This document shows, one piece after another, positions 2,667 through 27,501 of a stretch of 28,093 nt of DNA. The stretch spans positions 1 through 28,093 of the forward strand of contig JBDREW010000015.1 in assembly GCA_043819385.1 (NCBI GenBank), read 5' to 3'. Under the pieces are notes generated by a model. It searched no databases, was not told where the DNA came from, and worked only from the letters and a program-made list of their open reading frames with translations. Source of the DNA: Candidatus Nealsonbacteria bacterium. Lineage in GTDB: Bacteria > Patescibacteriota > Minisyncoccia > Minisyncoccales > GWA2-38-27. Made by a program: the position numbers and the translations under genes. Position 1 is the first letter of the stretch. Every line of letters begins with the position of its first letter.

Positions 2667-3083
2667 ATGGATTATTCAAAAGAACAACTTGATGAACTTT
2701 ATGAAAATCTTCCAGAAAATCTTCAAGAAGCTGTTTTCTCTGAGAAAAATGGAACTATTATTTATAATTCATGTATAAAAAACAAAATCGAAAAAGATGA
2801 AGAAATAAAACAGGTTTCTAAATATGTTGGATATGTTTTATTGGGACTTCTATCTCCAAATGATTTCCAAAAAAGTTTAGAAGAAAAAGTAGGAATAAAA
2901 AAAGAAAAAGCAATCCAAATTTATTCAGAAATAAATAGATCCATTTTTTTCTCAGTTAAAAACAGTTTAGAAGCTCTTTATGAAATAAAACTAAAAGATA
3001 CTCCTATAAAGATAACAAAAGATTCTCCTATTCTAAAAAATAATCTAAAATCAAAAGACACTTACAGAGAACCAATAGAATAA
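2667..3083 (+). CDS. hypothetical protein (first gene of prgI-virB4 block)
   Basis: 138-aa ORF with an ATG start. It is acidic and Lys-rich with no recognisable motif. Confidence 0.5.
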   Translation: MDYSKEQLDELYENLPENLQEAVFSEKNGTIIYNSCIKNKIEKDEEIKQVSKYVGYVLLGLLSPNDFQKSLEEKVGIKKEKAIQIYSEINRSIFFSVKNSLEALYEIKLKDTPIKITKDSPILKNNLKSKDTYREPIE

Positions 3084-3098
3084 TTTTTTATCAATTTT

Positions 3099-3524
3099 AT
3101 GCAATTTACAGTACCAAAATTTATTGAAAACAAACCAAAAATAATAGGTCCGCTTACTTTTAAACAATTTGTTTTTGTTGGAACAGCGGGTGGCATTTGC
3201 CTTTTTCTTTATTTTATCATTCCCATCTCTCTTTTTATAATCATAACCATATTTTTATTAGGCGGAGCTTTTGCTTTAGCTTTTATTAAAATTGGAAAGG
3301 ACCCTTTACCTGTTGTTATAAGAAATCTTCTTGTTTACAATTTTAATCCAAAAATTTATCTTTGGAAAAAAGAAATAGGCACTCCAAAAACAATAATATT
3401 AAAAAAGAAAGAAAAAATACCTGCTTTTATAAAAAATCAAGAAGACAAAAAAACTGAATTAAAAGTAACAAGAAATAGCAAATTAGACAGATTACTAACT
3501 AAAATTGCTACAAAAAACAAATGA
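3099..3524 (+). CDS. PrgI/VirB3-like small two-TM T4SS protein
   Basis: 141 aa. The N-terminus MQFTVPKFIENKPKIIGPLTFKQFVFVG is followed by two hydrophobic helices. It sits immediately upstream of VirB4 and is translationally coupled to it (ATGA overlap), as for Tn916 orf17/PrgI. Confidence 0.5.
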   Translation: MQFTVPKFIENKPKIIGPLTFKQFVFVGTAGGICLFLYFIIPISLFIIITIFLLGGAFALAFIKIGKDPLPVVIRNLLVYNFNPKIYLWKKEIGTPKTIILKKKEKIPAFIKNQEDKKTELKVTRNSKLDRLLTKIATKNK

Positions 3525-4171
3525 AAGAATCATCAACTCAAGATTTTTTAGAATTTGAACAAATAAAAAACGGGATTATCATTTTAAAAAATAAAGCATT
3601 AAGATCAGTTTTAATGACTTCTTCTTTGAATTTTGCTTTAAAATCTGAAGAAGAGCAACAATCTATTTTATATCAATTTCAAAACTTTTTGAATTCTTTA
3701 GATTTTTCAACTCAAATCCTTGTTCAATCAAGAAAATTAAATATAACTGGCTATTTAGATAAATTAAGAGAAATTGAAAAAAAAGAAAAAAGCGAATTAC
3801 TTAAAATACAACTTGATGAATATAGAAAATTTATAGAAAAAATATTATCCCAAGGGACTATTATGCAAAAAAGTTTCTATGTAATTGTCCCTTTTTCAAT
3901 TATGGAAACAAAGGAAACATCAACTATTAAAAAAGGACTCTTACCTAAAATCATTCCAGAATTAACTGAAGAAGAGTTTAATAGAGCAAAAACCCAACTT
4001 TTACAAAGGGTAGAATTTGTATCTTTAGGATTAAGAGGATTTGGACTTCAATCTTCTCCTTTAAATACATTAGAAATTATTGAACTTTTCTGGGGACTTC
4101 ATCATCCGTCAGAAGCTGAAAAAGGATATTACCCAGAATTTCCACTTGATTTAGATTTAGAAGAAGAATAA
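3521..4171 (+). CDS. VirB4/TrbE-family ATPase, N-terminal domain (5' half of a split gene)
   Basis: 216 aa. The segment FEQIKNGIIILKNKALRSVLMTSSLNFALKSEEEQQSILYQFQNFLNSLDFSTQILVQS matches the conserved N-terminal region of Gram-positive VirB4 homologues (Tn916 Orf16/TcpF/PrgJ type) from memory. The ORF ends 184 bp before the ATPase ORF, which is in a different frame. Confidence 0.6.
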   Translation: MKESSTQDFLEFEQIKNGIIILKNKALRSVLMTSSLNFALKSEEEQQSILYQFQNFLNSLDFSTQILVQSRKLNITGYLDKLREIEKKEKSELLKIQLDEYRKFIEKILSQGTIMQKSFYVIVPFSIMETKETSTIKKGLLPKIIPELTEEEFNRAKTQLLQRVEFVSLGLRGFGLQSSPLNTLEIIELFWGLHHPSEAEKGYYPEFPLDLDLEEE

Positions 4172-4186
4172 ATTTATTTATTTTCA

Positions 4187-4338
4187 AGCGAGCGAGAGAA
4201 ATGTGAAAGCTTGCTTTCACATTTCCGAGCGAGTGCTGAAAATGTATGTATTAAATACATTTTTTAATACCCCCACCCCTTGGGGTGGGATAAATATAAG
4301 TCTTTTGGGTGGGGTATAATACCCCAACCAAAAGTTCA
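4187..4338. repeat. block of four hairpins/palindromes filling the gap between the VirB4 halves
   Basis: The four elements are 4187-4237 agcgagcgagagaaatgtgaaagc/ttgc/tttcacatttccgagcgagtgct, 4240-4266 aaaatgtat-gtattaa-atacattttt, 4268-4291 ccccacccc-ttgg-ggtggg, and 4296-4330 cttttgggtggggtat-aat-accccaaccaaaag. Confidence 0.7.
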
Positions 4339-4355
4339 ATATATTCATATTTATT

Positions 4356-6161
4356 ATGAAATTACCATTTACAAAACAATTTAAAAGGAGAGAGAAAATC
4401 ATAGAACTTCCTGTACCATCTCAATCTGTTCAAATTTCTGATGTTATTGCTCCTTCTTTTATTGAAGTTAAGCAAAATCATATCAAAATAGGAGAACGTC
4501 TTGCTAAAACCTATTTTATTTTTTCATATCCAAGATATTTAACTACTGGATGGCTTTCTCCAATAATAAATCTAAATGTCCCAATGGATATTTCTTTTTA
4601 TCTTCATCCTGTTGAATCAGGAAAAATTTTAAAACAATTAAGAAGAAGAGTTACTGAAGTCCAAGCAGAAATTGGCGAAAAAGAAGAAAAAGGACAAATT
4701 AGAGACCCACAATTAGAAACAGCTTATGGCGATTTAGAAGAATTAAGAGACAAGCTCCAAACTGCCCAAGAAAGGATGTTTTATTTTGGATTATACCTAA
4801 CTATTTATGCTGATTCCGAAAAAGAACTAAGAGACACTGAAACAAACTTAAGATCAATTTTAGAATCTAGATTAATTTATATTAAGCCCGCTCTTTATCA
4901 ACAAAAAGAAGGATTTGTTTCTACTTCTCCATATAATTTAGACGTTCTAATGATTTCTAATTTGATGAACACTGGGCCTTTGTCAAGTATGTTTCCATTT
5001 ATTTCTTTTGATTTGAGTTCAAATGAAGGAATTCTTTATGGAATTAATAGGCACAACAATTCACTTGTTTTATTCGACCGATTTACTTTAGCAAATGCAA
5101 ATTCAGTAATTTTTGGAATATCAGGAGGAGGAAAATCCTATGCTATAAAATTAGAAATTTTAAGATATTTAATGCTTGGAACTGATGTTATAATTTTAGA
5201 CCCTGAAAATGAATATAAGTTTCTTTCAGATGCTGTTGGCGGGTCTTTTTTTAATATATCTTTGGCCTCTCCACATCATCTTAATCCATTTGATTTACCA
5301 CAACCAAGAGAAGATGAACTCGTAGAAGATGTTTTAAGAACAAACATTATGAATTTAGTTGGATTGATAAGAATAATGCTTGGTGGATTGACACCAGAAG
5401 AAGACGCAATTATTGATAGCGGATTAACTGAGACCTATGCTGCAAAAGATATTACTGCTAAATCAGATCCAAAACTATGGGGAAAAGAAGATGGATTAGA
5501 ATTTCCTATTATGAGTGATTTTGAAGAAGTTCTTTCAACAATGGAAGGAGCAGAATCATTAGTAAGACGACTTCAAAGATTTACCAAAGGAGTCTATTCA
5601 AGTTTTTTTAATCAACGAACTAATATAGATGTAGATAAAAGAATGGTTGTTTTTGGTATTCGTAATATGGAAGACGAACTTCGTCCAATGGCTTTATTTA
5701 TGATTTTAAGATTTATTTGGAAAACCGTTAGTGCCAAAATGAAAAAACGACTTTTAGTTATTGATGAGGCATGGTGGTTAATGCAAAATGAAGATGGTGC
5801 TTCTTTCTTATTTGGAACAGTTAAAAGGGCTAGAAAATACTGGCTTGGAGTTACTACTATTACCCAAGATGTAGCTGATTTTATGAAATCTGAATATGGT
5901 CAACCAATTATTACTAATTCATCACTTGCTTTATTGATGAAACAAAATCCAGCAACAATAGAAGTTGTTAAAAAAACTTTCAACCTAACTGAAGAAGAAA
6001 AGCTTTTACTTTTAGAAACACCCGTTGGAGAAGGTATATTTTTTGCCGGAACAAAACATGTTTTAGTTAAAATATTAGCTTCATATGCCGAAGATCAAAT
6101 AATTACAACTTCCCCTGAAGAAGTTGAGAAAATAAGACAAGCAAAAAAAGAATTAGAATAA
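4356..6161 (+). CDS. virB4: VirB4/TrbE/PrgJ-family T4SS ATPase (ATPase part)
   Basis: 601 aa with Walker A GISGGGKS, Walker B LLVIDEAW, and the IGERLAKTYFIFSYPRYLTTGWL and ILDPENEY motifs characteristic of VirB4 ATPases. Confidence 0.85.
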   Translation: MKLPFTKQFKRREKIIELPVPSQSVQISDVIAPSFIEVKQNHIKIGERLAKTYFIFSYPRYLTTGWLSPIINLNVPMDISFYLHPVESGKILKQLRRRVTEVQAEIGEKEEKGQIRDPQLETAYGDLEELRDKLQTAQERMFYFGLYLTIYADSEKELRDTETNLRSILESRLIYIKPALYQQKEGFVSTSPYNLDVLMISNLMNTGPLSSMFPFISFDLSSNEGILYGINRHNNSLVLFDRFTLANANSVIFGISGGGKSYAIKLEILRYLMLGTDVIILDPENEYKFLSDAVGGSFFNISLASPHHLNPFDLPQPREDELVEDVLRTNIMNLVGLIRIMLGGLTPEEDAIIDSGLTETYAAKDITAKSDPKLWGKEDGLEFPIMSDFEEVLSTMEGAESLVRRLQRFTKGVYSSFFNQRTNIDVDKRMVVFGIRNMEDELRPMALFMILRFIWKTVSAKMKKRLLVIDEAWWLMQNEDGASFLFGTVKRARKYWLGVTTITQDVADFMKSEYGQPIITNSSLALLMKQNPATIEVVKKTFNLTEEEKLLLLETPVGEGIFFAGTKHVLVKILASYAEDQIITTSPEEVEKIRQAKKELE

Positions 6162-6424: not shown

Positions 6425-6880
6425 ATGGAAAAAGATAACTCAAAACAAGAAAATAATTTAGAAGAAGAAAAACCAAAGCCAATTCTCAGTCAAGGGGAAA
6501 TGAAATTTCCAAAAGTTGAAATTGGTATGGGAGCTATTTTTAGCCCAGAAGCATTAGTGATGTTTTCTCTTGCTGGAATACTTGATATAATTGGATTTCT
6601 TCTTCTTTGTTTTGCATTAGATGATCTCTGGATTCTTGATACAACCGGACTAATACTTATTGGTTCTTGGATGTTTTTTAGAACAGGAAGCATTCCTACA
6701 TCTAAAAGATTAAGACAAAATAAACAAAATCCTACCTCAGAAATAAAAAAGAAAATGGGAAGAAAAATTTTAAAAAGATTAGGATTAGCTTTTTTTATTG
6801 AAGCAATACCATGGATTGGAGGTCTTGTTCCATCTTGGACTATAGCTGTTTATTTTGAACTTAAAAATAATCCACTATAA
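6425..6880 (+). CDS. hypothetical small membrane protein
   Basis: 151 aa with 2-3 hydrophobic helices. It lies between virB4 and the pilin-fusion genes. Confidence 0.5.
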   Translation: MEKDNSKQENNLEEEKPKPILSQGEMKFPKVEIGMGAIFSPEALVMFSLAGILDIIGFLLLCFALDDLWILDTTGLILIGSWMFFRTGSIPTSKRLRQNKQNPTSEIKKKMGRKILKRLGLAFFIEAIPWIGGLVPSWTIAVYFELKNNPL

Positions 6881-6900
6881 AAACAAAGAAAGAATATAGA

Positions 6901-6964: not shown

Positions 6965-9022
6965 ATGGATAATGAAAAAAAAACAAAAGATATAAAAAGA
7001 GTTTTTTTTGGATTTTTAATCCTCTTTTTTTTATTTTTTACAAATATTGTTTTTGCTTTAGAGGTTGATTATCCATCATTTCCTGGAATACCAGATATCA
7101 ACAATTCAACATCAATGGAAGATATCACTATTTATAGGTTTAGATTTATTATTATAATTTCTGGATTTATAGCTTTATTATCTTTAGTAATAGCTGGAGC
7201 TCGTTATCTTACCTCAACCGGAAAACCAGATAAAATGGCGTCTGCCAAAGAACAAATCTCAAATGCTTTTTTTGGTCTTTTACTTTTATTGTCATCATTC
7301 CTTTTACTTCAAGCCATAAGCCCTAAATTTGTTGAATTAGGAATAACAAAACCAGAAAAAATTGAAACACCAGAAATTATAGAAACATCCGACTTCCCAA
7401 TTCAAGAGTTTAGGTCATCAATATATACTGAAATCCCTTTTGGAAAAATAATTGAACAATATATATTAGAAAATAAAAATACAATTGAAGAAGATAAAAA
7501 AGACAAAAGAAAATCAAGAATGGAAAGAATTTTAGATATTGGAGAAAACTCATTACAACTTGGCGAAAAATTAAAAAAACAAAGTGAAGAATTAAAAGAA
7601 CTTGCTCAAAAATGCGATTGTACTCAATTAAAAACTTGCTGTGAAAATTCTAATCCAGGGCCTGCCTGCACAAGTAATCTTTGTGTTTCAAAACCAGGAT
7701 GTACTGGAGACCCATGTAAAAATTCAAGAGATAATATCCAAAAAAAAGAAAAAGAAAATTTAAAAGCAATGTATGAGGGAACAGAAGTTAAACAAGATGA
7801 TATTTCTGGAAATTCTTCTCAAGTCACAACTAGCTTAAGAACTGAACAAGAAAGGGCTTCCCAAGAAATTCGACTTATAAAATATGAGATAGATAAAATA
7901 GAAAGAGCGGAAACCTTTATGATAGAATGTCCATTATGGTCAATAACAAATTTATCTGATTATTTAGATACAAAAAACTTTTATTTAGAAAAAAAATGGA
8001 GATTTGAGCCAGTTAATTTTTGGTCGGATATAAGGGTAATTGATGATTGGGCAACTGTTTATTGTGCAGTAAGTGGTAATACTTGGGAATCAAATTATCA
8101 AGAATCATCTGGCAAGATAGAAGATCTTTCAAAATCAGTGAAACGATCATATCAAGGATTTTCTAGCGACAAAGAACCAGTCACTTGTACAACTGAAATT
8201 TCAATTGGTGAGCTTATGGATAGAGCCAAAAGAACTGGATATAAATTAGTAGAAAGATTAGAAAAAATTATTGATTTGAATGAACAATTAACAAAAGCTG
8301 TTAATGACCTTCATACATTAGTAAGTCAATGCTCATCTCTCGGACCATCCGCTGATCCTCCACGAGCAGGTTGTTTTTCTCAATGCCATAAAACAATTCT
8401 TAACGCTTGTATTAAACAATGTATAGGTTTAGCTCCAGGATGGCAAGGACCTTGCCCAGCTCAAAAAATTGAAGAAAAAATTAAAGAAATTAAAGATATT
8501 GTAGAAGGAGTTCCAAACCAACCAGCTGAAAATGAAGAAAAAAAGGAAAAAGAAGGGATAAAAGATGTACTTGAAGCCAAGAAAAAAACAAAAAAAGAAG
8601 CTATTGAAGATAACGCAACAAGAGAACAAATAGGTATAAAACCAATTGTCAATGAAGTTGTTCCAAAAATAATTGAAGATTTGGCTGGAATGGTCAGAAA
8701 TCCTATTAAAAAATGTGTTTCTGGATTTACAGGGATAAGTCAAGTATTAAGCTGTAGCAATAGTATTAATGGAATAGGGCCAGAAGATAAATTAATTAAA
8801 GAATGTTGTTATAACGAAAAATGGTTTCAAGAATGTCTTGGTCAATGTTATTTAGAGGGTCCTAAAAATGAATCATCTGATAATAATTCAACAGGAAAAA
8901 AAGAGGAAAGCGAATATAAAAAATGTTTAAAAAGCTGTCAAGATAAAAAAGCCAAAGAAACTAAAATAGACGCAATATCTGATTGTCTTCATTTAATTAA
9001 TTTCTATTGTTGCTCACCATAA
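6965..9022 (+). CDS. VirB2/TrbC-like pilin-domain protein with long Cys-rich/coiled-coil C-terminal extension (paralog 1, 685 aa)
   Basis: Signal peptide, then LEVDYPSFPG, then a hydrophobic helix ...ISGFIALLSLVIAGARYLTSTGKPDKMASAKEQISNAFFGLLLLL... that aligns with the short pilin at 27067-27501. The C-terminal ~530 aa carry multiple CxxC/CC clusters and Lys/Glu-rich coiled coil. Confidence 0.7.
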   Translation: MDNEKKTKDIKRVFFGFLILFFLFFTNIVFALEVDYPSFPGIPDINNSTSMEDITIYRFRFIIIISGFIALLSLVIAGARYLTSTGKPDKMASAKEQISNAFFGLLLLLSSFLLLQAISPKFVELGITKPEKIETPEIIETSDFPIQEFRSSIYTEIPFGKIIEQYILENKNTIEEDKKDKRKSRMERILDIGENSLQLGEKLKKQSEELKELAQKCDCTQLKTCCENSNPGPACTSNLCVSKPGCTGDPCKNSRDNIQKKEKENLKAMYEGTEVKQDDISGNSSQVTTSLRTEQERASQEIRLIKYEIDKIERAETFMIECPLWSITNLSDYLDTKNFYLEKKWRFEPVNFWSDIRVIDDWATVYCAVSGNTWESNYQESSGKIEDLSKSVKRSYQGFSSDKEPVTCTTEISIGELMDRAKRTGYKLVERLEKIIDLNEQLTKAVNDLHTLVSQCSSLGPSADPPRAGCFSQCHKTILNACIKQCIGLAPGWQGPCPAQKIEEKIKEIKDIVEGVPNQPAENEEKKEKEGIKDVLEAKKKTKKEAIEDNATREQIGIKPIVNEVVPKIIEDLAGMVRNPIKKCVSGFTGISQVLSCSNSINGIGPEDKLIKECCYNEKWFQECLGQCYLEGPKNESSDNNSTGKKEESEYKKCLKSCQDKKAKETKIDAISDCLHLINFYCCSP

Positions 9023-9027
9023 AAAAA

Positions 9028-10626
9028 ATGTTTAAAAAAATCATTATTCTAATATCTGCTTTTTTAATTATTGGTTTTATTTTTGCTCCTATTTCTTATG
9101 CTCTTGAAACTAATTATCCATCAGTCCCCGGAGCTTCACAACCATCAGACCAAACATCTTTACCAGATTTTGTAAAATATATTTTTGTACTTTTAATCGC
9201 TGGATCTGGAATTATTGCTATATTTAGTTTAACAATAGCTGGATTCCGTTATTTAAATTCAGGAGGAAATCCAGAAAAAATAAAGCAAGCAAGAGGTCAA
9301 GTATTATCAGCTTTTTGGGGAATTATGATTTTATTAGGTTCTTGGGTTATTCTAAATATTATCAATCCAAAATTAACTTCTTTAGAATTAGAAGACCCAA
9401 TTCCTGTTCCTGGTGTAGAAATACCTGCTCCTCCAATTTATTCTATTCCTACTTCAGATCTTTTATTAAGAGTAAAATTATTAGTTGAGGCAACAAAAAA
9501 AACTCCTGATTATATAAAAGAAACAGCTAAAAAAATAAAAGAATTAACTGATAAGTGTGATTGTGGAAATACTCAATCCATTTGTGCTTGTGAAAAAGGA
9601 GGACAATCATCATTAGATAAAAAACCATGGGATTATAGTTTAGATAATTACGATACAGATATCTTTTTATTATCTTATGAAAAAAAACCAATAATTATTC
9701 CTAAAACATTTAATGATAGCATAGAACCAATCGGAGCAGGTGGAGAAACTCCATTTGGTGGTGGTGGTATAGAACCAATTGGAGCAGGTGGAGAAACTCC
9801 ATTTGGTGGTGGTATAGAACCAATTGGAGCAGGTGGAGAAACTCCATTTGGCGGTGGTGGTATAGAACCAATTGGAGCAGGTGGAGAAACTCCAGGAGAG
9901 CCTGGAGGAGAGCCTGGAGGAGAATCTGGAGGAGAACCCGAAGGAGAGCCCGAAGAAGGAGGACCAGATCAAAATTTAATTTGTAAACCAAAAACTTGCT
10001 ATATTGGACAATCCTCTAACCCTTGCCCTGACAAAGAAGATATTAAAAAATATGAAAAAGCTCTTATTGACCAAAAAGATATGATTTTCTATTATAAGAA
10101 TAGGGTATATGAAGAAAGAAATGATTTAACCACTGATATAGAACAATTTATAGATAAAGAAATATCTTGGTACGAAGAACAAATACAGGCTGAGGAAAAA
10201 TTAGAGGACTGGGGAGGATTAAAACAAAGAAAAATAGATTTTCTTCAAGAAAGAAAAAGCTGGTTAGAACAAGAAAAAAAATACAAACAAGAATTAATCC
10301 AAGAGCTTGAACAACTTGCTCAAATTATTGAAAAAATAGGAGATCCATCTATAAAAATTCCTCAACTATCAAATCAATGTTTAATAAATGTAAAAACAAA
10401 ATGTCAGGCAAGATGTAAACAAAGCAATGACAATGGATGTATTGATAAAGTAAAAGGGTGCGAACCAGACTCTTGTACGGGAGGAAATCCATGTTCAACT
10501 GGTGAGATACAATCTGAAATAAGTAAAATTGAACAAATTTCTCAAGAAATCAAAAGTAAATGTGATCAAATAATTTCTACTATAAACAATATAGAAAAAG
10601 AAAAAACTCCAACTAAAACGCTTTAA
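9028..10626 (+). CDS. VirB2/TrbC-like pilin-domain protein with repeat-containing Cys-rich extension (paralog 2)
   Basis: Same N-terminal architecture (ALETNYPSVPG, LPDFVKYIFVLLIAGSGIIAIFSLTIAGFRYLNSGGNPEKIKQARGQVLSAFWGIMILLGSWVILNIINP). The track start at 9007 is TTG; ATG at 9028 is more likely. Contains tandem IEPIGAGGETPFGGGG and GEPGG repeats and Cys clusters. Confidence 0.7.
   Translation: MFKKIIILISAFLIIGFIFAPISYALETNYPSVPGASQPSDQTSLPDFVKYIFVLLIAGSGIIAIFSLTIAGFRYLNSGGNPEKIKQARGQVLSAFWGIMILLGSWVILNIINPKLTSLELEDPIPVPGVEIPAPPIYSIPTSDLLLRVKLLVEATKKTPDYIKETAKKIKELTDKCDCGNTQSICACEKGGQSSLDKKPWDYSLDNYDTDIFLLSYEKKPIIIPKTFNDSIEPIGAGGETPFGGGGIEPIGAGGETPFGGGIEPIGAGGETPFGGGGIEPIGAGGETPGEPGGEPGGESGGEPEGEPEEGGPDQNLICKPKTCYIGQSSNPCPDKEDIKKYEKALIDQKDMIFYYKNRVYEERNDLTTDIEQFIDKEISWYEEQIQAEEKLEDWGGLKQRKIDFLQERKSWLEQEKKYKQELIQELEQLAQIIEKIGDPSIKIPQLSNQCLINVKTKCQARCKQSNDNGCIDKVKGCEPDSCTGGNPCSTGEIQSEISKIEQISQEIKSKCDQIISTINNIEKEKTPTKTL
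9715..9960 (+). repeat. intragenic tandem repeats: 48/45-nt unit x4 (IEPIGAGGETPFGG(G)G) followed by 12-15-nt GGAGAGCCTGGA-type units
   Basis: Direct near-identical nucleotide repeats visible at 9721-9900. They are GC-richer than the flanks. Confidence 0.85.
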
Positions 10627-10632
10627 TTTTTT

Positions 10633-11862
10633 ATGAAAAAAAACATTATTTTATTATTAATATTTCCTTTAATTCTGATTTTATTTTTTCCGTTAATTGT
10701 AAATGGACAAGGAACGGAACCACGTGCCTTAGAGCTTGAATATCCTTCTTTTCCACCCGAAGCTTCTGCGCCGACAAGCACTACATCTTTACCAGATTTT
10801 GTAAAATATATTTTTGTTTTTGCCATAATTATTTCTGGCTTTATCGCATTATTAGTTATTGTTTATGCTGGTTTTGAATACACGGCCTCAATAGGATCTC
10901 CTAACAAAATACAAAGTGCAAAAGATAAAATAAATGGTGCTATTATAGGTTTATTAATATTAGCTGTTTCTTGGTTAATTCTTGATACTATCAATCCTCA
11001 ATTAGTTATTTTCCGATTGCCAAGCGAATTGCCATCTGCTATCCCTGATATAAGTCCTGGAGTTTATTTATGTTCTCAAAGAGTAGATATTTTAGGATTT
11101 TGGCAAAAAAGACAACAAGCTGAACGCGAAGAAGGAACAACCCAAAAACAAACATTTCAAGAATTAACAGGAATACTAAAAACAATAGAACAATATTGTG
11201 CTCCAACTAACCCAGTTCAAACATCAGGAGATATTAGCTCAGATATTGAAGATAAAATTCAATATGTTTATCTTGTACCATCTTTCAGGGAAGCCCAATA
11301 TGGAGCAATCCTTTATGAAGAAAGAGGATTTCAAGGTAAAAGTAGCGTATTTTACGGAACATCAACAGGATCAGGAGGAGTTTCTACATTAGATAAACCA
11401 ACTGAATGGCCTGTACGGAACATTCAAGCATCTTCAGCACGAGTTTTTATACTTAACTTTAATCCAGCTCCATCATGGGAAGCAAGATTATTTGAATTAG
11501 TCCACTTTAATAGAGACGACATAAAAGGAAAAAAAACTCCTGAAGCATGTAAACCAGGAGAACAGGGTTCATCAACGGCAACAGGAAATTGTCAAATACC
11601 TAAAAATAAAGATAATAAAAATGAAGTTGGATCAGTAAATATTGAAGGTAGTATGTTTGTTATATTTTTAAAAGAAGGGGGTGATTGGACAAGCTCATCA
11701 GATAATTATATCCAAGCAAATCCAGGCAATACTGATTTAAACAATACAGTAATGGGCACATGGAAAAGAGAAGAATGTGTTGAAAAAAGAGAACCAGAAC
11801 TACGAGATAGATATTATCCATGTGCTGAAAGGGGAGTTGTTGTGGGTGCAGATTTTTATTAA
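10633..11862 (+). CDS. VirB2/TrbC-like pilin-domain protein with globular C-terminal extension (paralog 3, 409 aa)
   Basis: LELEYPSFPPE, LPDFVKYIFVFAIIISGFIALLVIVYAGFEYTASIGSPNKIQSAKDKINGAIIGLLILAVSWLILDTINPQL, then ~280 aa with scattered Cys. Confidence 0.7.
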   Translation: MKKNIILLLIFPLILILFFPLIVNGQGTEPRALELEYPSFPPEASAPTSTTSLPDFVKYIFVFAIIISGFIALLVIVYAGFEYTASIGSPNKIQSAKDKINGAIIGLLILAVSWLILDTINPQLVIFRLPSELPSAIPDISPGVYLCSQRVDILGFWQKRQQAEREEGTTQKQTFQELTGILKTIEQYCAPTNPVQTSGDISSDIEDKIQYVYLVPSFREAQYGAILYEERGFQGKSSVFYGTSTGSGGVSTLDKPTEWPVRNIQASSARVFILNFNPAPSWEARLFELVHFNRDDIKGKKTPEACKPGEQGSSTATGNCQIPKNKDNKNEVGSVNIEGSMFVIFLKEGGDWTSSSDNYIQANPGNTDLNNTVMGTWKREECVEKREPELRDRYYPCAERGVVVGADFY

Positions 11863-12052: not shown

Positions 12053-12514
12053 TTATGAGATTCTTGGTTTTATAACTAATCTTCTTTCATCTTTTTCTCC
12101 AATACTTTCAGTTATTATATCGCTTCTGTTAGCTAATTCAAGATGAATAATCCTTCGTTCATAAGCGGACATTGGCATTAATATTTTTTCCTGACTTGTT
12201 AAAGCAACATCATTAGCAAAAGTTTTTACTATTTCTTTTAAATACTCAATTTTTTTCTCTTTATAATTATTAATATCAAGATTGATATAAAATGGTTGAT
12301 TGATTTTACGCATTAATACTCTTTTCAAAAGATGCTGAATCTCTGCTAATGTTTGTCCATTTTGACCAATTAAAATTTTTGGATCTCCTGTTCTCATATT
12401 TACAAAAATTGTTTGATCATCTACTTTAAGATTTTCAACGTCCAACTCAAAACTAGTTTTCTGAAAAAACTGATTAACTTCTGATTTAATTGTTTCTAAA
12501 TCATTGAAATCCAT
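12053..12514 (-). CDS. jag: Jag/KhpB RNA-binding protein (KH + R3H domains)
   Basis: R3H signature PMSAYERRIIHLELA...ESIGEKDERRLVI. It lies downstream of yidC, the conserved synteny. Confidence 0.8.
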   Translation of the reverse strand: MDFNDLETIKSEVNQFFQKTSFELDVENLKVDDQTIFVNMRTGDPKILIGQNGQTLAEIQHLLKRVLMRKINQPFYINLDINNYKEKKIEYLKEIVKTFANDVALTSQEKILMPMSAYERRIIHLELANRSDIITESIGEKDERRLVIKPRIS

Positions 12515-12527
12515 AATAAATAAAAGA

Positions 12528-13268: not shown

Positions 13269-13368
13269 AAAAATTCAATTTACAATTTTCAATTTACAAT
13301 CAATTAACCAATGTTTCAATTTTCAAACAGCTTATAAGAATACCTGTTTTTATTAAAAATTGTTTCAT

Positions 13369-13400
13369 TCCTGCCCGCATTGCTATACAAAGCGTTGCAG
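13369..13400. repeat. degenerate GC-rich hairpin (cctgcccgcattgcta...agcgttgcagacgg), related to 25822-25860
   Basis: Shares CCTGCCCGCAT(C/T)GCTA..AAGCGTTGC with the copy upstream of comM. Confidence 0.4.
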
Positions 13401-13434
13401 ACGGAAAAAATTAAACTGAAATTAAAAATTAAAA

Positions 13435-13776: not shown

Positions 13777-13869
13777 AAGCTTGATACTAATAAATTATTG
13801 ATATTGATTTATATAATTAGTATACTTTTTTCTATTTTTATTTATAAACAAACAAGTATAATTTAATTA

Positions 13870-17186: not shown

Positions 17187-17285
17187 ATAAGCAGAAAATA
17201 TCAAGGAAATTGTTTTCTTGATTAACTTAAACAGGTCTTAAATAGGCCTAAACAGAACCTTTATAATTTGGAAAGGTGTGAGACA

Positions 17286-18485
17286 ATGCCAGAAAATGAA
17301 AACACAAATGTAGAGAGCCAAGAATCAGGAGACGATCGTTGGTTGATTATGTTAATTTCCTTTGTTTTGGAAATTGGTTTAGTCACAGTTCTTTTCTATC
17401 TCATTTTCCCAATTACTTTTTTGGGAGGGATAGTTGGAATAATTGTTGCTTTCGGAGTTGTGCCAGTTTTAATTGTTTATTTCTGGTGGGCTCCCAACAA
17501 TCTTTGCTTCACTTTTGTTAATGAAGGAACAGTAAAAGTTGTTGTGCTTGGAGGTAAAGTTACAAACATTTTAATTCAAAAAGAGGAATATACCCTTGAT
17601 AATGATTGGAATGTTATTCCTGAGGATTCAGACCACAGAGAACTTTGGCATCCTTTGGGAGGGTTAAGATTTTATGGCGTTTGGCCATTATGTGATATTC
17701 ATCTCTATGATTTTTCATGGACAGCTATGTTGCAGAACGGTGAAATTAAGCCCCATGTAGATGAAACACTTGATTATGCACTTTTGATGGATGATGTTTA
17801 CTGGTTTGAAGTTCTAAAAGCAGAAGACAAAAATCGCTTGCCATTGAATTTGCAGGTCTTAGTTACAATGAGAATAGTCAACCCCTATAAGGCATTATTT
17901 GCTGTTCAGGATTGGTTAGAAGCAGTGATAGGTAGAATTCAGCCAGTTGTTCGTGACCGAATTACTCAGGCGACATATGAAGAGCTTACGATTAATCCTG
18001 AAGCGGTTGGGCATGCTATTTTTCATGGTCCTGGAGATCATTTTGATATTTTTAGAGACAGATATGGAGTGGATGTTGTAGCTTTAGAAATAAAAGAAAT
18101 TGATCCTCCTGATGATTTGCGCGAGATTACTCTTAGAGAGGTTACAGCGACAAGAGAAGCAGAAGCTACTATTGTTGCAGCAGAAGCAGGGGCAAAAGTT
18201 GTTGTTATTACAGCAAAAGCTAAAGCTGAAGAAGTTAGGATTGGAGCTGAAGCTGAAGCAAGAGCAGTAGAGATAGCAGCTACTGCAGAAGCAGGAAGAT
18301 TAGAAAAAGTCTATGGGGCAATTGATAAACAGGGTGAATTAGGAAAGTTGGCTCGAATACTGGAAGCATTGGAAGCATCTCCGGAAAATGGATCAAAATG
18401 GGTGGTTCCAATACCTGGAATACTTGACGGCTTGAGCCAGATTTTTTCTGGCAAGCAATCACCGCCGTTTGATCCACCGAAGTAA
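17286..18485 (+). CDS. SPFH/band-7 (stomatin/prohibitin/HflC-like) membrane protein
   Basis: Two N-terminal TM helices, an SPFH core and an Ala/Glu-rich coiled coil (TATREAEATIVAAEAGAKVVVITAKAKAEEVRIGAEAEARA). ATG at 17286 with an AAAGGTG Shine-Dalgarno; the track start at 17268 is TTG. The gene is visibly GC-richer than its neighbours. Confidence 0.8.
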   Translation: MPENENTNVESQESGDDRWLIMLISFVLEIGLVTVLFYLIFPITFLGGIVGIIVAFGVVPVLIVYFWWAPNNLCFTFVNEGTVKVVVLGGKVTNILIQKEEYTLDNDWNVIPEDSDHRELWHPLGGLRFYGVWPLCDIHLYDFSWTAMLQNGEIKPHVDETLDYALLMDDVYWFEVLKAEDKNRLPLNLQVLVTMRIVNPYKALFAVQDWLEAVIGRIQPVVRDRITQATYEELTINPEAVGHAIFHGPGDHFDIFRDRYGVDVVALEIKEIDPPDDLREITLREVTATREAEATIVAAEAGAKVVVITAKAKAEEVRIGAEAEARAVEIAATAEAGRLEKVYGAIDKQGELGKLARILEALEASPENGSKWVVPIPGILDGLSQIFSGKQSPPFDPPK

Positions 18486-18589: not shown

Positions 18590-18624
18590 AATACATAATA
18601 CTAAATACTAAATACTAAATACTT
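18590..18624. repeat. (AATACTA)~5 heptamer tandem repeat abutting the stop of the VirB6-like gene
   Basis: aatacat aatacta aatacta aatacta aatactt. Confidence 0.7.
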
Positions 18625-20977
18625 ATTTCTTTCCCTTAGGTGGTCGTTTATATCCTCCTGGACCTGTTGTACCTTTTGGTTTTTTTCCTGATCCCGAACC
18701 AATCCCCATCCCAAAAGGATGTTTCTTTTTTGAAGGAGGCGTTGTTCCAGCTCCAGCACCAGGAGTATATTGAGATCCGCCACCCGGAGGAGTTGATTTA
18801 CTACTGTCTGAAACTAAACTTGCTAAATATTGTGGAGCTTTCCAATCATTACCCCACATTTTTGGATCAGATAATCCTTTAAAGTATCCTGCTTTGCCAT
18901 ATTCTTTTTCTAAATATTTTACATATTCTCTTACAGCATCATCCATTCCTGTTTCTTTATCCATACTTGCATCTCCCTCTTGATGTTCTCCTATTTTATT
19001 CATAAGATCTTTATTTTTATTTAGAAATTCAGAATATGCTTTGTTCATTCCTTCCATAGATGCTTTTTGTCCTTGTTTAACTGTTCTATGTATTTGTATC
19101 CATCTATCTTTATCAAATTCAGCCATAGCAGGCTCTATAATATTTATATTTTTTAATGTTCCGGGTTCCATTTTGGCAATATGTTGTCCTCTTGATTCTT
19201 CTAATGCTTTTTGTATTGATTGTTTAGGAGATAAGGTCTTATATCCTGGTATATTTTGACCTGCTGCAATAGCAGCTAATCGAGGATCAGATCTTAAAAA
19301 AGAGCTTAAAAAACCTGATTTGAATAATGATTGAAATGGGCTTTCCATTATCTTTTTAAATTCTTTATCTTCCATAAGATCATTATCTGTAACATCTTTA
19401 ACATTTTTACCTAATCTTTCGGCAATTCCCTTGCCAAAATATTTTTTACCATCTTTAAATATATCATCAGCATCTCCTACATCAATAGTCTGTTTTAATC
19501 TTCCAGCAGCTTCTTTTCCTATTACTTTTTTAGTAAATACATCTGTTAAATTTGTTGGAGTAGAATATTTTTTTGCTTCTTCTTGAGATTTTAATACATC
19601 AGGACGAATTTCTCCATAATCTTTAATTTTTTGAGGAAAAAACCATCTAGCAATAGGTATTTTTTCTGTAACTGTTTTGCTTGCCCATCCAGCTAAATCT
19701 TTTATTTTTGTTTGTTCCTCGATCCATGGTTTAGCTCCTCCCCATACTTTTTTACCCATCCATCCCATTGCTCTTTTAGGGGCCTTATATCCCAACCATC
19801 CCATTGCTTTTTGAGGAGCCCTAGCTCCGATTGTGGTTAAGGCGCCTGCTCCCATAGCTGATGTTTGAAGTCCAAAAAGTAATCCAATAAAAAGAAAAGC
19901 AACTGGAACAACAAATATAAATATACTTGCGCCTGTACTTAAATTTGCAACAGAATATCCAAGTTTGTCTGTTTGACTTGCTAATGTTTCTCCTAAATAA
20001 AGAAAAAACATACAAGTAACTCCAATTAAAGACCATTGAATCATCTGGTTCCACCATATATTAAAATATTTTTGAGTGGCTGGTAAAATATACGAAACAA
20101 AAGCAAGTGGAGATAAAATAACTAAAATCCAAATAGCAATATATCTTACTGCAAAAATTAAAGCAAATAAAAGATAAACAATGGCCATTATAAAATTAAT
20201 TATGGCAAGGGCTGTTATTTTTCCTACTTTTTCCATTAATCCAGCTCTTGTTGAATCTCTTGTTCCAGCAGAGCTTGTAGCTTCCCACAGACCTGCTGCT
20301 TCTTTGTCAAAAGAATCCTTAGCTTTTGATACTAAGTTTGCACCAACGCTTGTTTCTCCATTGTCTCCTGCCAAAGCATTAAGAAAAAAATTCATAGAGA
20401 TATTTCCTGCATCAACAATTAATCCACAAATAACAGGAGCAAAGTTTACCAATAGAGCTATGATAATAAAAGTTACTAATATTTTTCTATCTTGATATTT
20501 ATCTAATCTTAAAATAGTTGCCAAAGCAATCCAAACAAGAACAAGAACAAGAGTCATATTAACAAATCCTTGAGTAACACTTAATCCAGTTGCAATTATT
20601 GGATTATCAGCAGGATTAGTGTAGCTAATATTAATAAAATTATCGCTTAATACCCATCTGGCAAGAGAGGAAGTGAGAGTAGCAAAAGTAAGGGTGACCA
20701 TTCCTATTGCCCACGGAACTGCTCCTATTAATGTTGAAACAATAGATTCTGGCAAGGACCACAAAGTATCCATCCATCCAGGTTCAGATTCTGCGCTTGT
20801 TGACGGTGTTATAGTAGGGTTATCTATATCAAAGTCCCATGGAGTTTGAGCTTGTACTGGAGATAATTGGTAAAAAAATAAATTAGCAAAAAGAAATAAA
20901 AATAAAAAACAAAAAAGCTTTTTTTTGTTTTTCAACAAAAGAGAAAAATCAAAGATTTTTAACAATTTTTTAATCAT
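18623..20977 (-). CDS. VirB6/TrbL-like polytopic membrane protein with Gly/Pro/Lys-rich C-terminal tail
   Basis: 784 aa with a signal peptide and at least 6 TM helices in the N-terminal 400 aa. The C-terminal half is hydrophilic, with a low-complexity PPGGGSQYTPGAGAG...KKPKG tail. Size and topology resemble Tn916 Orf15/TrbL. No sequence-level motif confirmed. Confidence 0.55.
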   Translation of the reverse strand: MIKKLLKIFDFSLLLKNKKKLFCFLFLFLFANLFFYQLSPVQAQTPWDFDIDNPTITPSTSAESEPGWMDTLWSLPESIVSTLIGAVPWAIGMVTLTFATLTSSLARWVLSDNFINISYTNPADNPIIATGLSVTQGFVNMTLVLVLVWIALATILRLDKYQDRKILVTFIIIALLVNFAPVICGLIVDAGNISMNFFLNALAGDNGETSVGANLVSKAKDSFDKEAAGLWEATSSAGTRDSTRAGLMEKVGKITALAIINFIMAIVYLLFALIFAVRYIAIWILVILSPLAFVSYILPATQKYFNIWWNQMIQWSLIGVTCMFFLYLGETLASQTDKLGYSVANLSTGASIFIFVVPVAFLFIGLLFGLQTSAMGAGALTTIGARAPQKAMGWLGYKAPKRAMGWMGKKVWGGAKPWIEEQTKIKDLAGWASKTVTEKIPIARWFFPQKIKDYGEIRPDVLKSQEEAKKYSTPTNLTDVFTKKVIGKEAAGRLKQTIDVGDADDIFKDGKKYFGKGIAERLGKNVKDVTDNDLMEDKEFKKIMESPFQSLFKSGFLSSFLRSDPRLAAIAAGQNIPGYKTLSPKQSIQKALEESRGQHIAKMEPGTLKNINIIEPAMAEFDKDRWIQIHRTVKQGQKASMEGMNKAYSEFLNKNKDLMNKIGEHQEGDASMDKETGMDDAVREYVKYLEKEYGKAGYFKGLSDPKMWGNDWKAPQYLASLVSDSSKSTPPGGGSQYTPGAGAGTTPPSKKKHPFGMGIGSGSGKKPKGTTGPGGYKRPPKGKK

Positions 20978-22353: not shown

Positions 22354-23463
22354 ATGTCGTATACAAACTCAAACCAAAAAGAGATTGAATCCGATAAACA
22401 GATACTGAAACAAAAAAAGAGCTCTAAAGGAGCTAAAAAGTTTTTTGGTATATCTTTAGTTATTATTATTTTAGGAGTTATAATTTTTGGAGCAAAACCT
22501 CTTTTAAATTCCCTTGTTAATAGGGATTTTTCTTTTTTAACAGCTCAATCAGCTGATAAGATTTTTTCTCAAGAATTATTTATTGAACCAACAAAGAATT
22601 TTCTTAAAGAATCATCTGAAATGAATTTTGTTCAAGAAAATAGTATAATAGCTATTTCTGCCCCTTGGTCAGTTGCTTCTCGGGCTTTGGGGTCAATAGC
22701 AGAAGAAACAGAAATAACAGCTGAGGGATTAGATACAGGGCTTACAGAGTATATTGTAGAAGAGGGAGATACTATATCATCTATTGCTGATAAATTTAAT
22801 ATTTCTTTAGAAACAATTTTGTGGGCAAATGATTTAAGTAGCAAATCAACAATAAAGCCAGGGCAAGAACTTATGATTTTACCTATTTCAGGAGCTGTTC
22901 ATTTGGTAAAAGATGGAGACACTATTGGGACGATTGCTAAAAAGTATAAAGGAGAAATAGATGATATTGTTAGTTTTAATAATCTTACAAGTGAAGCAGA
23001 TATTTATGTTGGAGATATGTTAGTTATCCCTGGTGGAAAAATGCCAGCAATTCCAGTAAAAGTTGTTTCTACTCCTTTGGCTGAAACATATTTTATGTTC
23101 CCATGTGAAGGAAAAATATCACAAGGATCTCATGGAGCTTTTGGAAATGCTGTTGATATCGCAAATAGCTGTGGAAAGCCAGTAGTAGCTTCTGCTGGTG
23201 GAACAGTCCAAAGAACAGGGCCTGCTCCTATTGCTGGAAACATTGTAACTATTATGCATCCTAATGGAGTTGTAAGCTCTTATGGTCATCTTTCAACAAT
23301 TACTGTTGTTCCTGGTCAAGTAGTTGGAACAGGAGATATTATTGCTTATATTGGAAATTCTGGATATACAGTTGGACAAACTGGTTGTCATTTACATTTT
23401 GAAGTTCGTGGTGCTTCAAACTTTTTGGCTCAGTATAAAATTGGAAGCATTATTAAATGGTAA
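22354..23463 (+). CDS. LysM(x2)-M23 family metallo-endopeptidase
   Basis: An N-terminal TM helix, two LysM repeats (YIVEEGDTISSIADKFNIS..., HLVKDGDTIGTIAKKYKGE...) and an M23 core HGAFGNAVDI...GHLS...GNSGYTVGQTGCHLHFEVR. Confidence 0.85.
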   Translation: MSYTNSNQKEIESDKQILKQKKSSKGAKKFFGISLVIIILGVIIFGAKPLLNSLVNRDFSFLTAQSADKIFSQELFIEPTKNFLKESSEMNFVQENSIIAISAPWSVASRALGSIAEETEITAEGLDTGLTEYIVEEGDTISSIADKFNISLETILWANDLSSKSTIKPGQELMILPISGAVHLVKDGDTIGTIAKKYKGEIDDIVSFNNLTSEADIYVGDMLVIPGGKMPAIPVKVVSTPLAETYFMFPCEGKISQGSHGAFGNAVDIANSCGKPVVASAGGTVQRTGPAPIAGNIVTIMHPNGVVSSYGHLSTITVVPGQVVGTGDIIAYIGNSGYTVGQTGCHLHFEVRGASNFLAQYKIGSIIKW

Positions 23464-26285: not shown

Positions 26286-26843
26286 ATGAATCAAGAACAA
26301 ATAAGTGATTATATAGAACAGATGAGTGGGCAAAAATCAGCATATATTTGCGGACCTTTAACAGGATTGGGATGGCGACAGAGAAAAAAAGCAAAAAGAT
26401 TTTATGAAGACATTGCGTTTTTTATTGATGAAATTACTGGAATAAGATCTTTTGTTCCTCATAAATTTTTTGACCCATTAAAAAATACTACTGCTACATC
26501 TCAAGAAATTGATACAGCAGAAAGAGAACAAATTGTTATTAGAACATCAGTTTTAATAGTAATAACTCATTTTGGGCCTTCTTGGGGTGGTGGAATAGAA
26601 GTAGAAATGGCTAATCGAAGCAGAGTTCCAGTAATTGTTATTTGTTCAAGAGATCAAAATGTTTCTCGTTTATTATTGGGCAATCCTGCTGTTCAGTATA
26701 TTATTCCATGTTCTAATAAAATTTCAGATTTTGATGAGGATACATGTTTTAGATTATTAGAAACGAGTTTGAGAAATTTAGATAGGATATTTGAACAAAA
26801 TATATTCGTAGAACATAAACGGTCTAAAATTTCGTCGCAATAA
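26286..26843 (+). CDS. nucleoside 2-deoxyribosyltransferase-like superfamily protein (DUF4406-like)
   Basis: 185 aa. YICGPLTG near the N-terminus and PSWGGGIEVEMANRSRVPVIVI resemble the DUF4406/NDT-like Rossmann motif with a catalytic Glu. From memory only. Confidence 0.4.
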   Translation: MNQEQISDYIEQMSGQKSAYICGPLTGLGWRQRKKAKRFYEDIAFFIDEITGIRSFVPHKFFDPLKNTTATSQEIDTAEREQIVIRTSVLIVITHFGPSWGGGIEVEMANRSRVPVIVICSRDQNVSRLLLGNPAVQYIIPCSNKISDFDEDTCFRLLETSLRNLDRIFEQNIFVEHKRSKISSQ

Positions 26844-26855
26844 AACAAAAAAACA

Positions 26856-26884
26856 AAGACAGAATTAAATTTCTGTCTTTTTTA
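26856..26884 (+). terminator. rho-independent terminator aagacagaa-ttaaat-ttctgtctttttt
   Basis: 9-bp stem plus a T7 run. Followed by a GC hairpin tgcggggatcggacccccgca (26889-26909). Confidence 0.7.
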
Positions 26885-26934
26885 TATGTGCGGGGATCGG
26901 ACCCCCGCAAGTTATTTTATGATTAATTTAGGTT

Positions 26935-26966
26935 GCGGAGAGGTGCTCTCCGTAAGTTTTTCAAAT
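26935..26966. repeat. single-hairpin copy of the cggagag-gtN-ctctccgtaagttttt family
   Basis: gcggagaggtgctctccgtaagttttt. Confidence 0.6.
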
Positions 26967-27066
26967 TTAAAAATTAAAGGAAGTCGGGCGTCCTTTAATT
27001 TATTGTTTTATATTCTCTTTTTTTAATTTTTATGTTATTATAAAAATATTAGAATAAATAATAAAT

Positions 27067-27501
27067 ATGATTAAAAAGATCCTTATAATCTCTTTTTTGG
27101 GATTGTTTGTTTTCTCTCCTTTTATAGTAAATGCTCAAACAAGGTCAGGCTGTCCAACGCAAGGGTTAGTTCCTTGTGGAGGTTCATCGTGTCCATGTAA
27201 ACTTTGTGATTTTTTTAAAATGATTGAAAGAATTGTTGATTTTATTCTTTTTGGAATTGTGCCAGCTTTAGCTGCTTTAATGATAGCAATTGGAGGATTT
27301 ATGTATATTTTTGCTTATTTAGGAGTAGCCGGAGGAGGTCCAGAAATGCTTTCAACTGCCAAAAATGTGTTTAAAGCAGTTATTTTAGGTCTTTTAATAG
27401 TTTATGGTGCTTGGCTAATTATTAATACATTCTTTATGGTAATAGGTGTGGCAGATTGGACTGGTTTAAGGCAAGGATGGTGGACAATTAACTGTAATTA
27501 G
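27067..27501 (+). CDS. VirB2/TrbC-like T4SS pilin, short Cys-motif type common in CPR genomes
   Basis: 144 aa with a signal peptide and CPTQGLVPCGGSSCPCKLCDF. Hydrophobic helix-loop-helix ALMIAIGGFMYIFAYLGVAGGGPEMLSTAKNVFKAVILGLLIVYGAWLIINT. Terminal Cys. Confidence 0.75.
   Translation: MIKKILIISFLGLFVFSPFIVNAQTRSGCPTQGLVPCGGSSCPCKLCDFFKMIERIVDFILFGIVPALAALMIAIGGFMYIFAYLGVAGGGPEMLSTAKNVFKAVILGLLIVYGAWLIINTFFMVIGVADWTGLRQGWWTINCN

Follow-up and report, generated by a model that had tools for sequence, protein, structure and literature searches.

A Probable Chromosomally Fixed Type IV Secretion System with Large Pilin Fusions in Candidatus Nealsonbacteria

RESULTS

A type IV secretion gene cluster is interleaved with core chromosomal genes

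We analyzed a complete 28,093-bp contig (approximately 29% G+C) from a metagenome-assembled genome (MAG) of Candidatus Nealsonbacteria, class Paceibacteria. This contig, referred to here as the window, carries the genes of a type IV secretion system (T4SS) among core chromosomal genes (Table 1). Gene searches covered the contig, and family scans with Pfam and NCBIfam were taken over its open reading frames (ORFs) of at least 80 amino acids. Relatives were collected by a VirB4 scan of species-representative genomes, which found 395, and the best 80 (65 to 82% VirB4 identity) were compared with the window. By record name, nearly all of these 80 are Patescibacteria (Nealsonbacteria, Staskawiczbacteria, Minisyncoccales, and Paceibacterota) or MAGs of unclassified bacteria; one record (L022) is titled Pseudomonadota. 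Synteny was counted downstream of virB4 in the 47 loci with at least 9 kb of sequence on that side and upstream in the 38 loci with long upstream flanks. An original prediction, made from the sequence of the window, had named a set of T4SS or pilus genes and core genes, and all of them are present where it placed them, as judged by Pfam, NCBIfam, structural models, and synteny.

Table 1. Coordinates of the T4SS genes and neighboring features in the window
Feature	Position	Strand	Description and matches
Y1 transposase, IS200-like	32-772	-	Sole mobile-element-like gene; best NCBIfam match "REP-associated tyrosine transposase," subcutoff at 46 bits (cutoff, 80)
orf138	2667..3083	+	Soluble, 138 aa; first gene of the operon
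prgI	3099..3524	+	PrgI/VirB3-like membrane protein; PF12666, 30.8 bits (cutoff, 27)
trsD	3521..4171	+	TrsD-like protein; separately encoded homologue of the N-terminal part of VirB4
virB4	4356..6161	+	VirB4 ATPase, monoderm MPF_FATA-like; conju_CD1110, 356.9 bits (cutoff, 325)
TM151	6425..6880	+	Small multi-pass membrane protein
pil685	6965..9022	+	VirB2-like pilin module plus ectodomain of ~550 aa, 28 Cys; PF18895, 31.5 bits
pil539	9007..10626	+	Pilin fusion, 15 Cys, four IEPIGAGGETPFGGG repeats; PF18895, 26.5 bits (just under cutoff)
pil409	10633..11862	+	Pilin module, helical linker, and beta ectodomain; PF18895, 32.8 bits; NCBI name "pilin"
jag	12053-12514	-	Pfam
yidC	12528-13268	-	Pfam
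rnpA	13435-13776	-	
rpmH	13870-14004	-	Translation
dnaA	14358-15704	+	TIGR00362, 529.5 bits
dnaN	15963-17093	+	
SPFH/Band-7 membrane protein	17268..18485	+	PF01145, E = 1e-11
virB6	18623..20977	-	Extended VirB6/TrbL-like polytopic membrane protein, 784 aa; hydrophilic C-terminal region of ~400 aa
LysM-M23	22354..23463	+	Two LysM domains and an M23 endopeptidase domain; Pfam LysM, M23
pil144	27067..27501	+	Short VirB2/TrbC-like pilin; just below threshold for PF18895 (25.4 bits) and for TrbC (21.8 bits)

VirB4 covers positions 184 to 732 of the conju_CD1110 model (NCBIfam), and its translation shows intact Walker A (GISGGGKS) and Walker B (LLVIDEAW) motifs. Its scores ranked CD1110 above Mycoplasma VirB4, followed by TraC-F and VirB4_CagE. 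The nearest solved structure is the C-terminal domain of Thermoanaerobacter VirB4 (4AG5; E = 2e-42), and diderm TrwK was matched with an E value of 4e-4. The best relatives share 80 to 82% identity with the protein. Upstream of virB4, prgI and trsD are found in 38/38 loci; in the window the prgI stop and the trsD start overlap by 4 nt, and the hydrophobic segment of the PrgI-like protein comprises residues 23 to 67. The order VirB3-like, TrsD, VirB4 is that of trsC-trsD-trsE on pGO1 and pSK41.

Analysis of TrsD revealed that it aligns solely to the N terminus of VirB4 models, namely, to positions 3 to 134 of CD1110 (NCBIfam; E = 2.6e-6) and to positions 101 to 233 of VirB4_plasma, the Mycoplasma VirB4 model (E = 2.9e-7). 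Taken together, TrsD and VirB4 span the greater part of one VirB4 family model, and neither contains cysteine. TrsD has 4,791 homologues at an E value of 1e-3 or lower. A profile of 73 TrsD orthologues gave no match in the PDB, so that the link of TrsD to the N terminus of VirB4 is supported by the NCBIfam alignments and the literature and not by a fold comparison. The families PF26593 (TrsD) and PF19590, precomputed for homologues, were not reproduced in our local Pfam scan.

The original prediction described virB4 as split. In 77/77 relatives, trsD and virB4 are separate ORFs of about 213 and 600 aa, respectively, and occur in all three relative frames; the two-gene arrangement is an ancient split. 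The description thus holds in the evolutionary sense, since TrsD matches the VirB4 N terminus, but not in the sense of a broken gene. The gap between the two genes has a median of 5 nt in the 77 relatives and is 185 nt in the window. We considered a recent frameshift or pseudogene as the cause of this gap and rejected it, since two ORFs occur in the relatives at every frame offset and the extra spacer is an inserted hairpin repeat. Within the spacer (4172-4355), positions 4177-4247 form a hairpin element (-15.8 kcal/mol; z, -4.8); a copy in inverted orientation (83% match) lies upstream of orf138 (2362-2432), so that the pair brackets orf138-prgI-trsD.

Two small genes flank this core. orf138 lies directly 5' of prgI in 20 of the 38 relatives with long upstream flanks, and TM151 lies downstream of virB4 in 20/47. 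Neither gave a Pfam or NCBIfam family match, and their orthologue profiles gave no meaningful match in the PDB.

The membrane protein encoded beyond dnaN is VirB6-like

The 784-aa protein scored below threshold for TrbL (21.6 bits; cutoff, 25.9), and an orthologue with 38% identity (P0144) passes the same model with 27.5 bits. A profile of 32 orthologues found R388 TrwI/VirB6 as its top PDB match (E = 0.028). An AlphaFold2 (AF2) model of the membrane domain (predicted local distance difference test [pLDDT], 81) gave TrwI/VirB6 chains and DotA as its top Foldseek matches. We assign the protein as VirB6 because the orthologue, the profile, and the model all lead to this family.

The part played by the adjacent SPFH protein in the T4SS is uncertain; it adjoins virB6 in about 8 to 10 relatives. 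Both peptidases encoded in the window had been put forward as possible cell wall remodelers. The C39 peptidase was rejected as a T4SS component, as its synteny is not conserved: it is a neighbor in none of the 38 loci with long upstream flanks and in one locus overall. The LysM-M23 protein fared better, being found beside ksgA-virB6 in 27/38 relatives. Its best NCBIfam matches are of the DipM/ActS/MepM type, all below cutoff, and since these are generic cell division endopeptidases, its assignment to the T4SS is weak. It is possibly a VirB1 analogue or else an ordinary cell division hydrolase.

Pilin modules carry large cysteine-rich ectodomains

Three genes 3' of virB4 encode proteins that each open with a signal peptide and a two-helix PF18895 (T4SS_pilin; cutoff, 26.6 bits) module and continue into a large C-terminal region. 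In pil685, which has a signal peptide and two transmembrane (TM) helices, homologues of the ectodomain amount to only 107 clusters among 1.84 billion representatives. In most full-length hits the match begins at about residue 130 to 150 of the target; PF18895 is present in 50 of the 58 aligned homologues, and the cysteine pattern is kept. pil539 is a paralogue of pil685 (33% identity over the first ~220 aa; E = 7e-29), and its true start is likely the ATG at 9028. Residues ~235 to 300 of pil539 (9707-9892) are encoded by in-frame tandem repeats of 45 to 48 nt, comprising four IEPIGAGGETPFGGG(G) units followed by a GEPG-rich stretch, which may form a length-variable linker in the ectodomain. 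The AF2 model of pil409 (pLDDT, 74) contains a helical hairpin (residues 55 to 120), a helical linker, and a beta domain (residues 189 to 407). When it was compared with the PDB using Foldseek, two-domain gamma-crystallins were the best matches (E = 1e-4; prob, 1.0; TMt, 0.55), and the ectodomain is accordingly predicted from the model to adopt a double beta-gamma-crystallin fold.

These fusions are a general feature of the lineage. A lineage hidden Markov model (HMM) found 137 pilin-domain ORFs in the 80 relatives, mostly as two to four tandem genes directly after virB4, with a median length of 491 aa and a maximum of 1,477 aa; 128 of them are at least 300 aa long. Pilin fusions are found downstream of virB4 in 42 to 43 of the 47 relatives. 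The C-terminal extensions of these ORFs contain 3.3% Cys, versus a background of 0.44%. The pilin module is kept, including an invariant LExxYP motif at the mature N terminus. It also gave subcutoff matches (E = 1e-7 to 8e-4) to NF045849, the Mbov_0395 pilin-like conjugal transfer protein of the Mycoplasma integrative and conjugative element (ICE). This similarity between sequences hints that VirB2-like proteins may exist within monoderm MPF_FATA systems, against the usual statement that these systems lack them.

The fourth pilin, pil144, has the signal peptide and two TM helices of the others and is of canonical size. It contains five N-terminal cysteines and one C-terminal cysteine and is a candidate for the shaft subunit of the pilus. 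Five metagenome contigs with orthologues (48 to 69% identity) were found; tRNA-Lys(CTT) lies 3' of the gene in three of them, and rpsO lies beyond it in two, where the contig reaches far enough. Of the pil144 cysteines, C29, C37, C42, C44, and C47 fall after the signal peptide and before the first helix, and C143 is the penultimate residue. It is speculative, but a disulfide between the two ends could mimic the head-to-tail cyclization of T-pilin and TrbC.

The cluster is syntenic with origin-associated genes in relatives

The original prediction placed the cluster among core genes rather than on an integrative element and suggested that synteny across relatives be examined. Downstream of virB4 we found jag in 46/47 loci, yidC and rnpA in 45/47 each, and dnaA in 41/47; upstream, virB6 was found in 29/38, ksgA in 28/38, and LysM-M23 in 27/38. 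The common order is comM, LysM-M23, ksgA, virB6, (SPFH), orf138, prgI, trsD, virB4, (TM151), pilins, jag, yidC, rnpA, dnaA, dnaN. In the window, YifB/ComM was identified with 587 bits and KsgA was confirmed by Pfam, and the jag-yidC-rnpA-rpmH block (12053..14004, minus strand) is convergent with the T4SS operon.

One inversion, running from orf138 to dnaN, separates the layout of the window and its closest relatives (VirB4 identity of 74% or more) from the common order. The inverted segment is approximately 14.5 kb long, contains the putative oriC, and has breakpoints within 2000-2660 and 17094-17267; the inversion puts SPFH-virB6-ksgA-LysM/M23-comM on the far side of dnaN, as in L004, for example, where virB6 follows dnaN. 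In its usual form the cluster is confined to one side of the origin, and the origin-straddling arrangement that had been noted is therefore real in this contig but is a derived, clade-specific layout rather than a general property of the system.

A putative oriC lies in the spacers flanking dnaA and dnaN. A perfect DnaA box was found at 15809, and boxes with one mismatch were found at 14144 and 15729. Across the contig, DnaA boxes are not enriched (12 found versus 8.7 expected), and GC skew tracks gene orientation and located no origin. As the box count is not significant, the origin call rests on the canonical rpmH-rnpA-yidC-jag/dnaA-dnaN gene order. In the relatives, the T4SS operon is always transcribed toward rpmH/dnaA (jag is on the minus strand in 55/55 loci and dnaA on the plus strand in 48/48). 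If oriC flanks dnaA, the operon is head-on to the replication fork, an orientation that is unusual for a presumably important operon.

No conjugation or integration genes were found on the contig

No match to relaxase (MOB), type IV coupling protein (T4CP), or integrase families was obtained among the contig ORFs of at least 80 amino acids, in agreement with what had been predicted. The contig contains no tRNA-Lys-derived direct repeat or other att-like repeat; tRNA-Lys was the sole Rfam match. Together with the conserved synteny, the lack of an integrase and of a tRNA-derived repeat bears out the placement of the cluster outside an integrative element. No second VirB4-like ATPase was found within 10 kb on either side of virB4 in 78 relatives, in which the recurrent extra neighbors look like housekeeping genes by their N-terminal sequences. 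Type IV pilus (T4P) families (PilB/PilT, PilC, prepilin peptidase, and class III signal peptides) likewise gave no match on the contig; the pilins carry Sec-type leaders and the VirB2 hairpin.

Repeats and insertions occur around the operon

A perfect GC-rich palindrome, CGGGGGTCTTGCCCCCGGAGCTCCGGGGGCAAGACCCCCGG, lies beside the Y1 transposase gene (795-866), with a second copy just 5' of the pil685 start (6896-6967). Its hairpins have a folding energy of about -29 kcal/mol (z, -8 to -10), and none of the 80 related loci contains the transposase/palindrome element. A second hairpin-repeat family, of the form ..CCCGACCTCTCT..GAGAGG..AGAGGTCGGGG.., occurs at 6234-6300, 6339-6365, 21233-21297, and 27663-27736, that is, in the virB4-TM151 spacer, 5' of ksgA, and after tRNA-Lys. 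Its absence from the 80 relatives suggests a genome-specific expansion, resembling repetitive extragenic palindromes (REPs), inside the T4SS operon spacers.

The convergent gap from the pil409 stop to the jag stop is filled by a perfect (AGTTCCA)16 microsatellite (11939-12050), which is unique to this contig compared with the 80 relatives. Related short motifs (AACTCAT/AACTTGG) occur after the dnaN stop and before orf138, near both inferred inversion breakpoints, and heptamer-related stretches are found at 11863-11883, 17081-17132, 2267-2301, and 21129-21161. A phase-variable inversion at the heptamer-like repeats (~2267 and 17081) was considered and rejected as the main explanation, as the inverted layout is fixed in the closest relatives; the match between the repeats (35 nt; 77%) could be due to chance.

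None of the 80 related loci has a counterpart of three genes in the window: one for a STAS-like protein (DUF4325; 23880-24170, minus strand), an ORF of 64 aa overlapping it, and a gene for a familyless 185-aa protein. They occupy the regions 23713-24170 and 26286-26843 and appear to have been inserted into a gene order that is conserved elsewhere.

DISCUSSION

The cluster is probably a chromosomally fixed T4SS of the Patescibacteria type, derived from MPF_FATA, and its most likely role is that of a nonconjugative host contact and transfer machine. A survey (Quinonero-Coronel et al. 2025, PMC12102498) that covered 3,035 Patescibacteria genomes describes a monophyletic VirB4 clade nested in MPF_FATA, in which VirB4 occurs with an adjacent TrsD, PrgI/VirB3, VirB6, and arrays of VirB2-like pilins, TrsD being the most abundant T4SS-associated protein in the group. 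In the same survey, virB4 of Paceibacteria and Microgenomatia lies close to dnaA, dnaN, rnpA, rpmH, and ksgA. In Southlakia epibionticum, transposon sequencing (Tn-seq) showed that SEML1_0006-0019 and the pilins are essential for epibiotic growth, and no recognizable coupling protein or relaxase accompanies that T4SS (Wang et al. 2023, PMC10633639). By analogy, we infer that the system studied here may be an essential device for host interaction or macromolecule transfer in an epibiotic lifestyle rather than for conjugation. More broadly, a T4SS that is near universal in Patescibacteria and essential in the one tractable species may be a conduit for acquiring host material.

In such a machine, VirB4 and TrsD would be docked to the membrane by PrgI, beneath a VirB6 platform. 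VirB4 would pull Sec-inserted VirB2-like subunits from the membrane, and these would be polymerized into a pilus or a short conduit that crosses the monoderm envelope. On this structure or at its tip, the giant pilin fusions would present fast-evolving, disulfide-rich ectodomains, one of them crystallin-like, for contact with the host.

Several points weigh against this interpretation. Essentiality is extrapolated from the genetics of Saccharimonadia to a Paceibacteria system, and the pilus built by the system is putative. The absence of relaxase and T4CP is a contig-level observation, and a distant copy elsewhere in the MAG is possible. VirD4-like proteins occur in most Patescibacteria genomes, mostly far from virB4 (PMC12102498), and the absence of VirD4 from one contig therefore says little. 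No VirB8-like component was identified on the contig, orf138 and TM151 are without a detectable family, and the VirB6 and short pilin proteins of the window themselves score below threshold by sequence. The pil409 model was built on a shallow alignment of 10 sequences.

The homology of VirB4, TrsD, and PrgI to Gram-positive conjugation proteins, with the trs gene order described above, would also suit a degenerate or domesticated ICE, with other contigs encoding its relaxase, coupling protein, and integrase; a single 28-kb contig was seen, and a Y1 transposase lies at its left end. We consider this explanation highly improbable. Dozens of species-level relatives (65 to 82% VirB4 identity) have the same genes among the same housekeeping neighbors, the contig has no integrase and no att or tRNA-derived direct repeat, and the 78 relatives have no second VirB4-like ATPase near virB4. 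In addition, the transposase is of the REP-associated type and is not an ICE integrase. Relaxases are found in 103 of the 3,035 Patescibacteria genomes and are seldom near virB4 (PMC12102498).

It is also quite unlikely that the cluster is a DNA uptake (competence) T4SS like ComB of Helicobacter pylori or the archaeal Ced system, in which ComM would help to recombine imported host or environmental DNA. The comM gene does lie in conserved synteny a few kilobases from virB6, but this adjacency may merely reflect origin-proximal housekeeping synteny. Similarly, VirB4 matches CedB weakly and in part, but the CedB and CedD matches comprise P-loop segments only and fall far below the cutoffs (42 versus 700 bits and 23 versus 600 bits, respectively), and no Ced- or ComB-specific homology was found beyond these on the contig. 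The cluster lacks relaxase and T4CP, as do uptake systems, and in the class ABY1 the T4SS is placed beside comF, recG, and radA (PMC12102498). In S. epibionticum, however, competence needs T4P and ComEC, and a comEC deletion mutant is viable although no longer competent, with the T4SS still being essential (2025 review, PMC12857230). The essential role of the T4SS therefore is not DNA uptake through ComEC. A housekeeping pilus for DNA uptake or host attachment, as originally proposed, is upheld insofar as the system is chromosomal and nonconjugative, while DNA uptake is disfavored by the comEC result.

A further explanation concerns the pilin fusions, which may be independent surface proteins on a VirB2-like hairpin anchor, with no pilus being made and VirB4 and VirB6 forming a short, envelope-spanning translocon. 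Ectodomains of 280 to 1,350 aa are hard to pack in a helical filament of the VirB2 type, and Gram-positive MPF_FATA systems make no pilus. Moreover, the ectodomains evolve fast (22 to 47% identity, versus 65 to 80% for VirB4), and in some relatives (L004, L013, and L014) the fusion genes lie away from virB4. Against this, the fusions are directly 3' of virB4 in 42 to 43 of 47 relatives, the pilin module is conserved with its invariant mature N terminus, and a pilin of canonical size is also present. The pilin genes are essential in S. epibionticum (PMC10633639), and tubular structures have been reported at a Patescibacteria-host interface, together with uptake of host RNA by the parasite (bioRxiv 10.64898/2026.06.21.733656). 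We therefore regard independent surface proteins as an unlikely explanation.

The cysteine-rich ectodomains are reasonable candidates for an adhesin or tip. One possibility, which we put forward tentatively, is that the two to four giant, disulfide-rich ectodomain proteins (350 to 1,480 aa) anchored by a VirB2 hairpin in Nealsonbacteria and Staskawiczbacteria form the host recognition and penetration tip of the pilus, or decorate it, and that pil144 forms the shaft. The array would then be a conserved module of these ectodomain proteins, one with a predicted double beta-gamma-crystallin fold, instead of a collection of alternative shaft pilins. The survey states that no adhesins were detected (PMC12102498). 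Were this arrangement correct, the ectodomain fusions would be the missing adhesin of these systems and a determinant of host range, and the weak similarity to the pilin-like protein of the Mycoplasma ICE would mean that the pilin came down by inheritance within MPF_FATA and was not acquired from diderm systems. The fusions are natural candidates for host specificity factors and for targeting with antibodies or by cryo-electron tomography.

Comparison with known systems

The system shares with R388 Trw and Agrobacterium VirB the VirB6 fold, TrwI being the best PDB match, and the VirB2-type pilin topology of a signal peptide and two helices. Those systems, however, are diderm, with an outer membrane core of VirB7, VirB9, and VirB10 in addition to VirB5, VirB11, and VirD4, and their VirB4 is distant (E = 4e-4). 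A monoderm architecture without VirB7, VirB9, and VirB10 is shared with pGO1, pSK41, pIP501, and the CD1110-family ICE, and VirB4 of the window passes the CD1110 cutoff. Unlike the cluster described here, Gram-positive conjugative T4SSs are located on mobile elements; they include a VirB1 hydrolase and VirB8-like proteins as well as a relaxase and a T4CP and are without a VirB2 pilin. With the Mycoplasma ICE (Mbov_0395 and Mbov_0397), the pilin modules match NF045849 and TrsD and VirB4 match NF045975, all below cutoff. That element is mobile, and its VirB4 is a single polypeptide, whereas the contig has the TrsD/VirB4 pair.

The T4SS of S. epibionticum ML1 is likewise chromosomal and origin proximal (genes 6 to 19), with a Gram-positive-like composition and a pilin array (PMC10633639). 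It belongs to the class Saccharimonadia and has been demonstrated experimentally to be essential, and it has six small, divergent pilins where the Nealsonbacteria contig has large ectodomain fusions.

The closest likeness is to the Paceibacteria layout described in PMC12102498, with which the contig shares VirB4, TrsD, and PrgI/VirB3, VirB6, a pilin array, the lack of a relaxase and of a T4CP close to virB4, and origin-proximal genes. There is no difference in kind. What sets the contig apart is that the inversion of this subclade puts virB6, ksgA, LysM-M23, and comM across dnaA-dnaN, that the virB4-adjacent pilins are cysteine-rich fusions of 409 to 685 aa, and that REP-like palindromes are inserted in three operon spacers. 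Passages of the survey text and a keyword search of it contain no mention of ectodomain pilin fusions. The window is thus a clean example of an already known system, the published Paceibacteria layout, and not a new kind. To its description we add that the TrsD/VirB4 pair spans most of the VirB4 model, that the layout differs by one inversion, and that the pilin fusions carry large cysteine-rich ectodomains.

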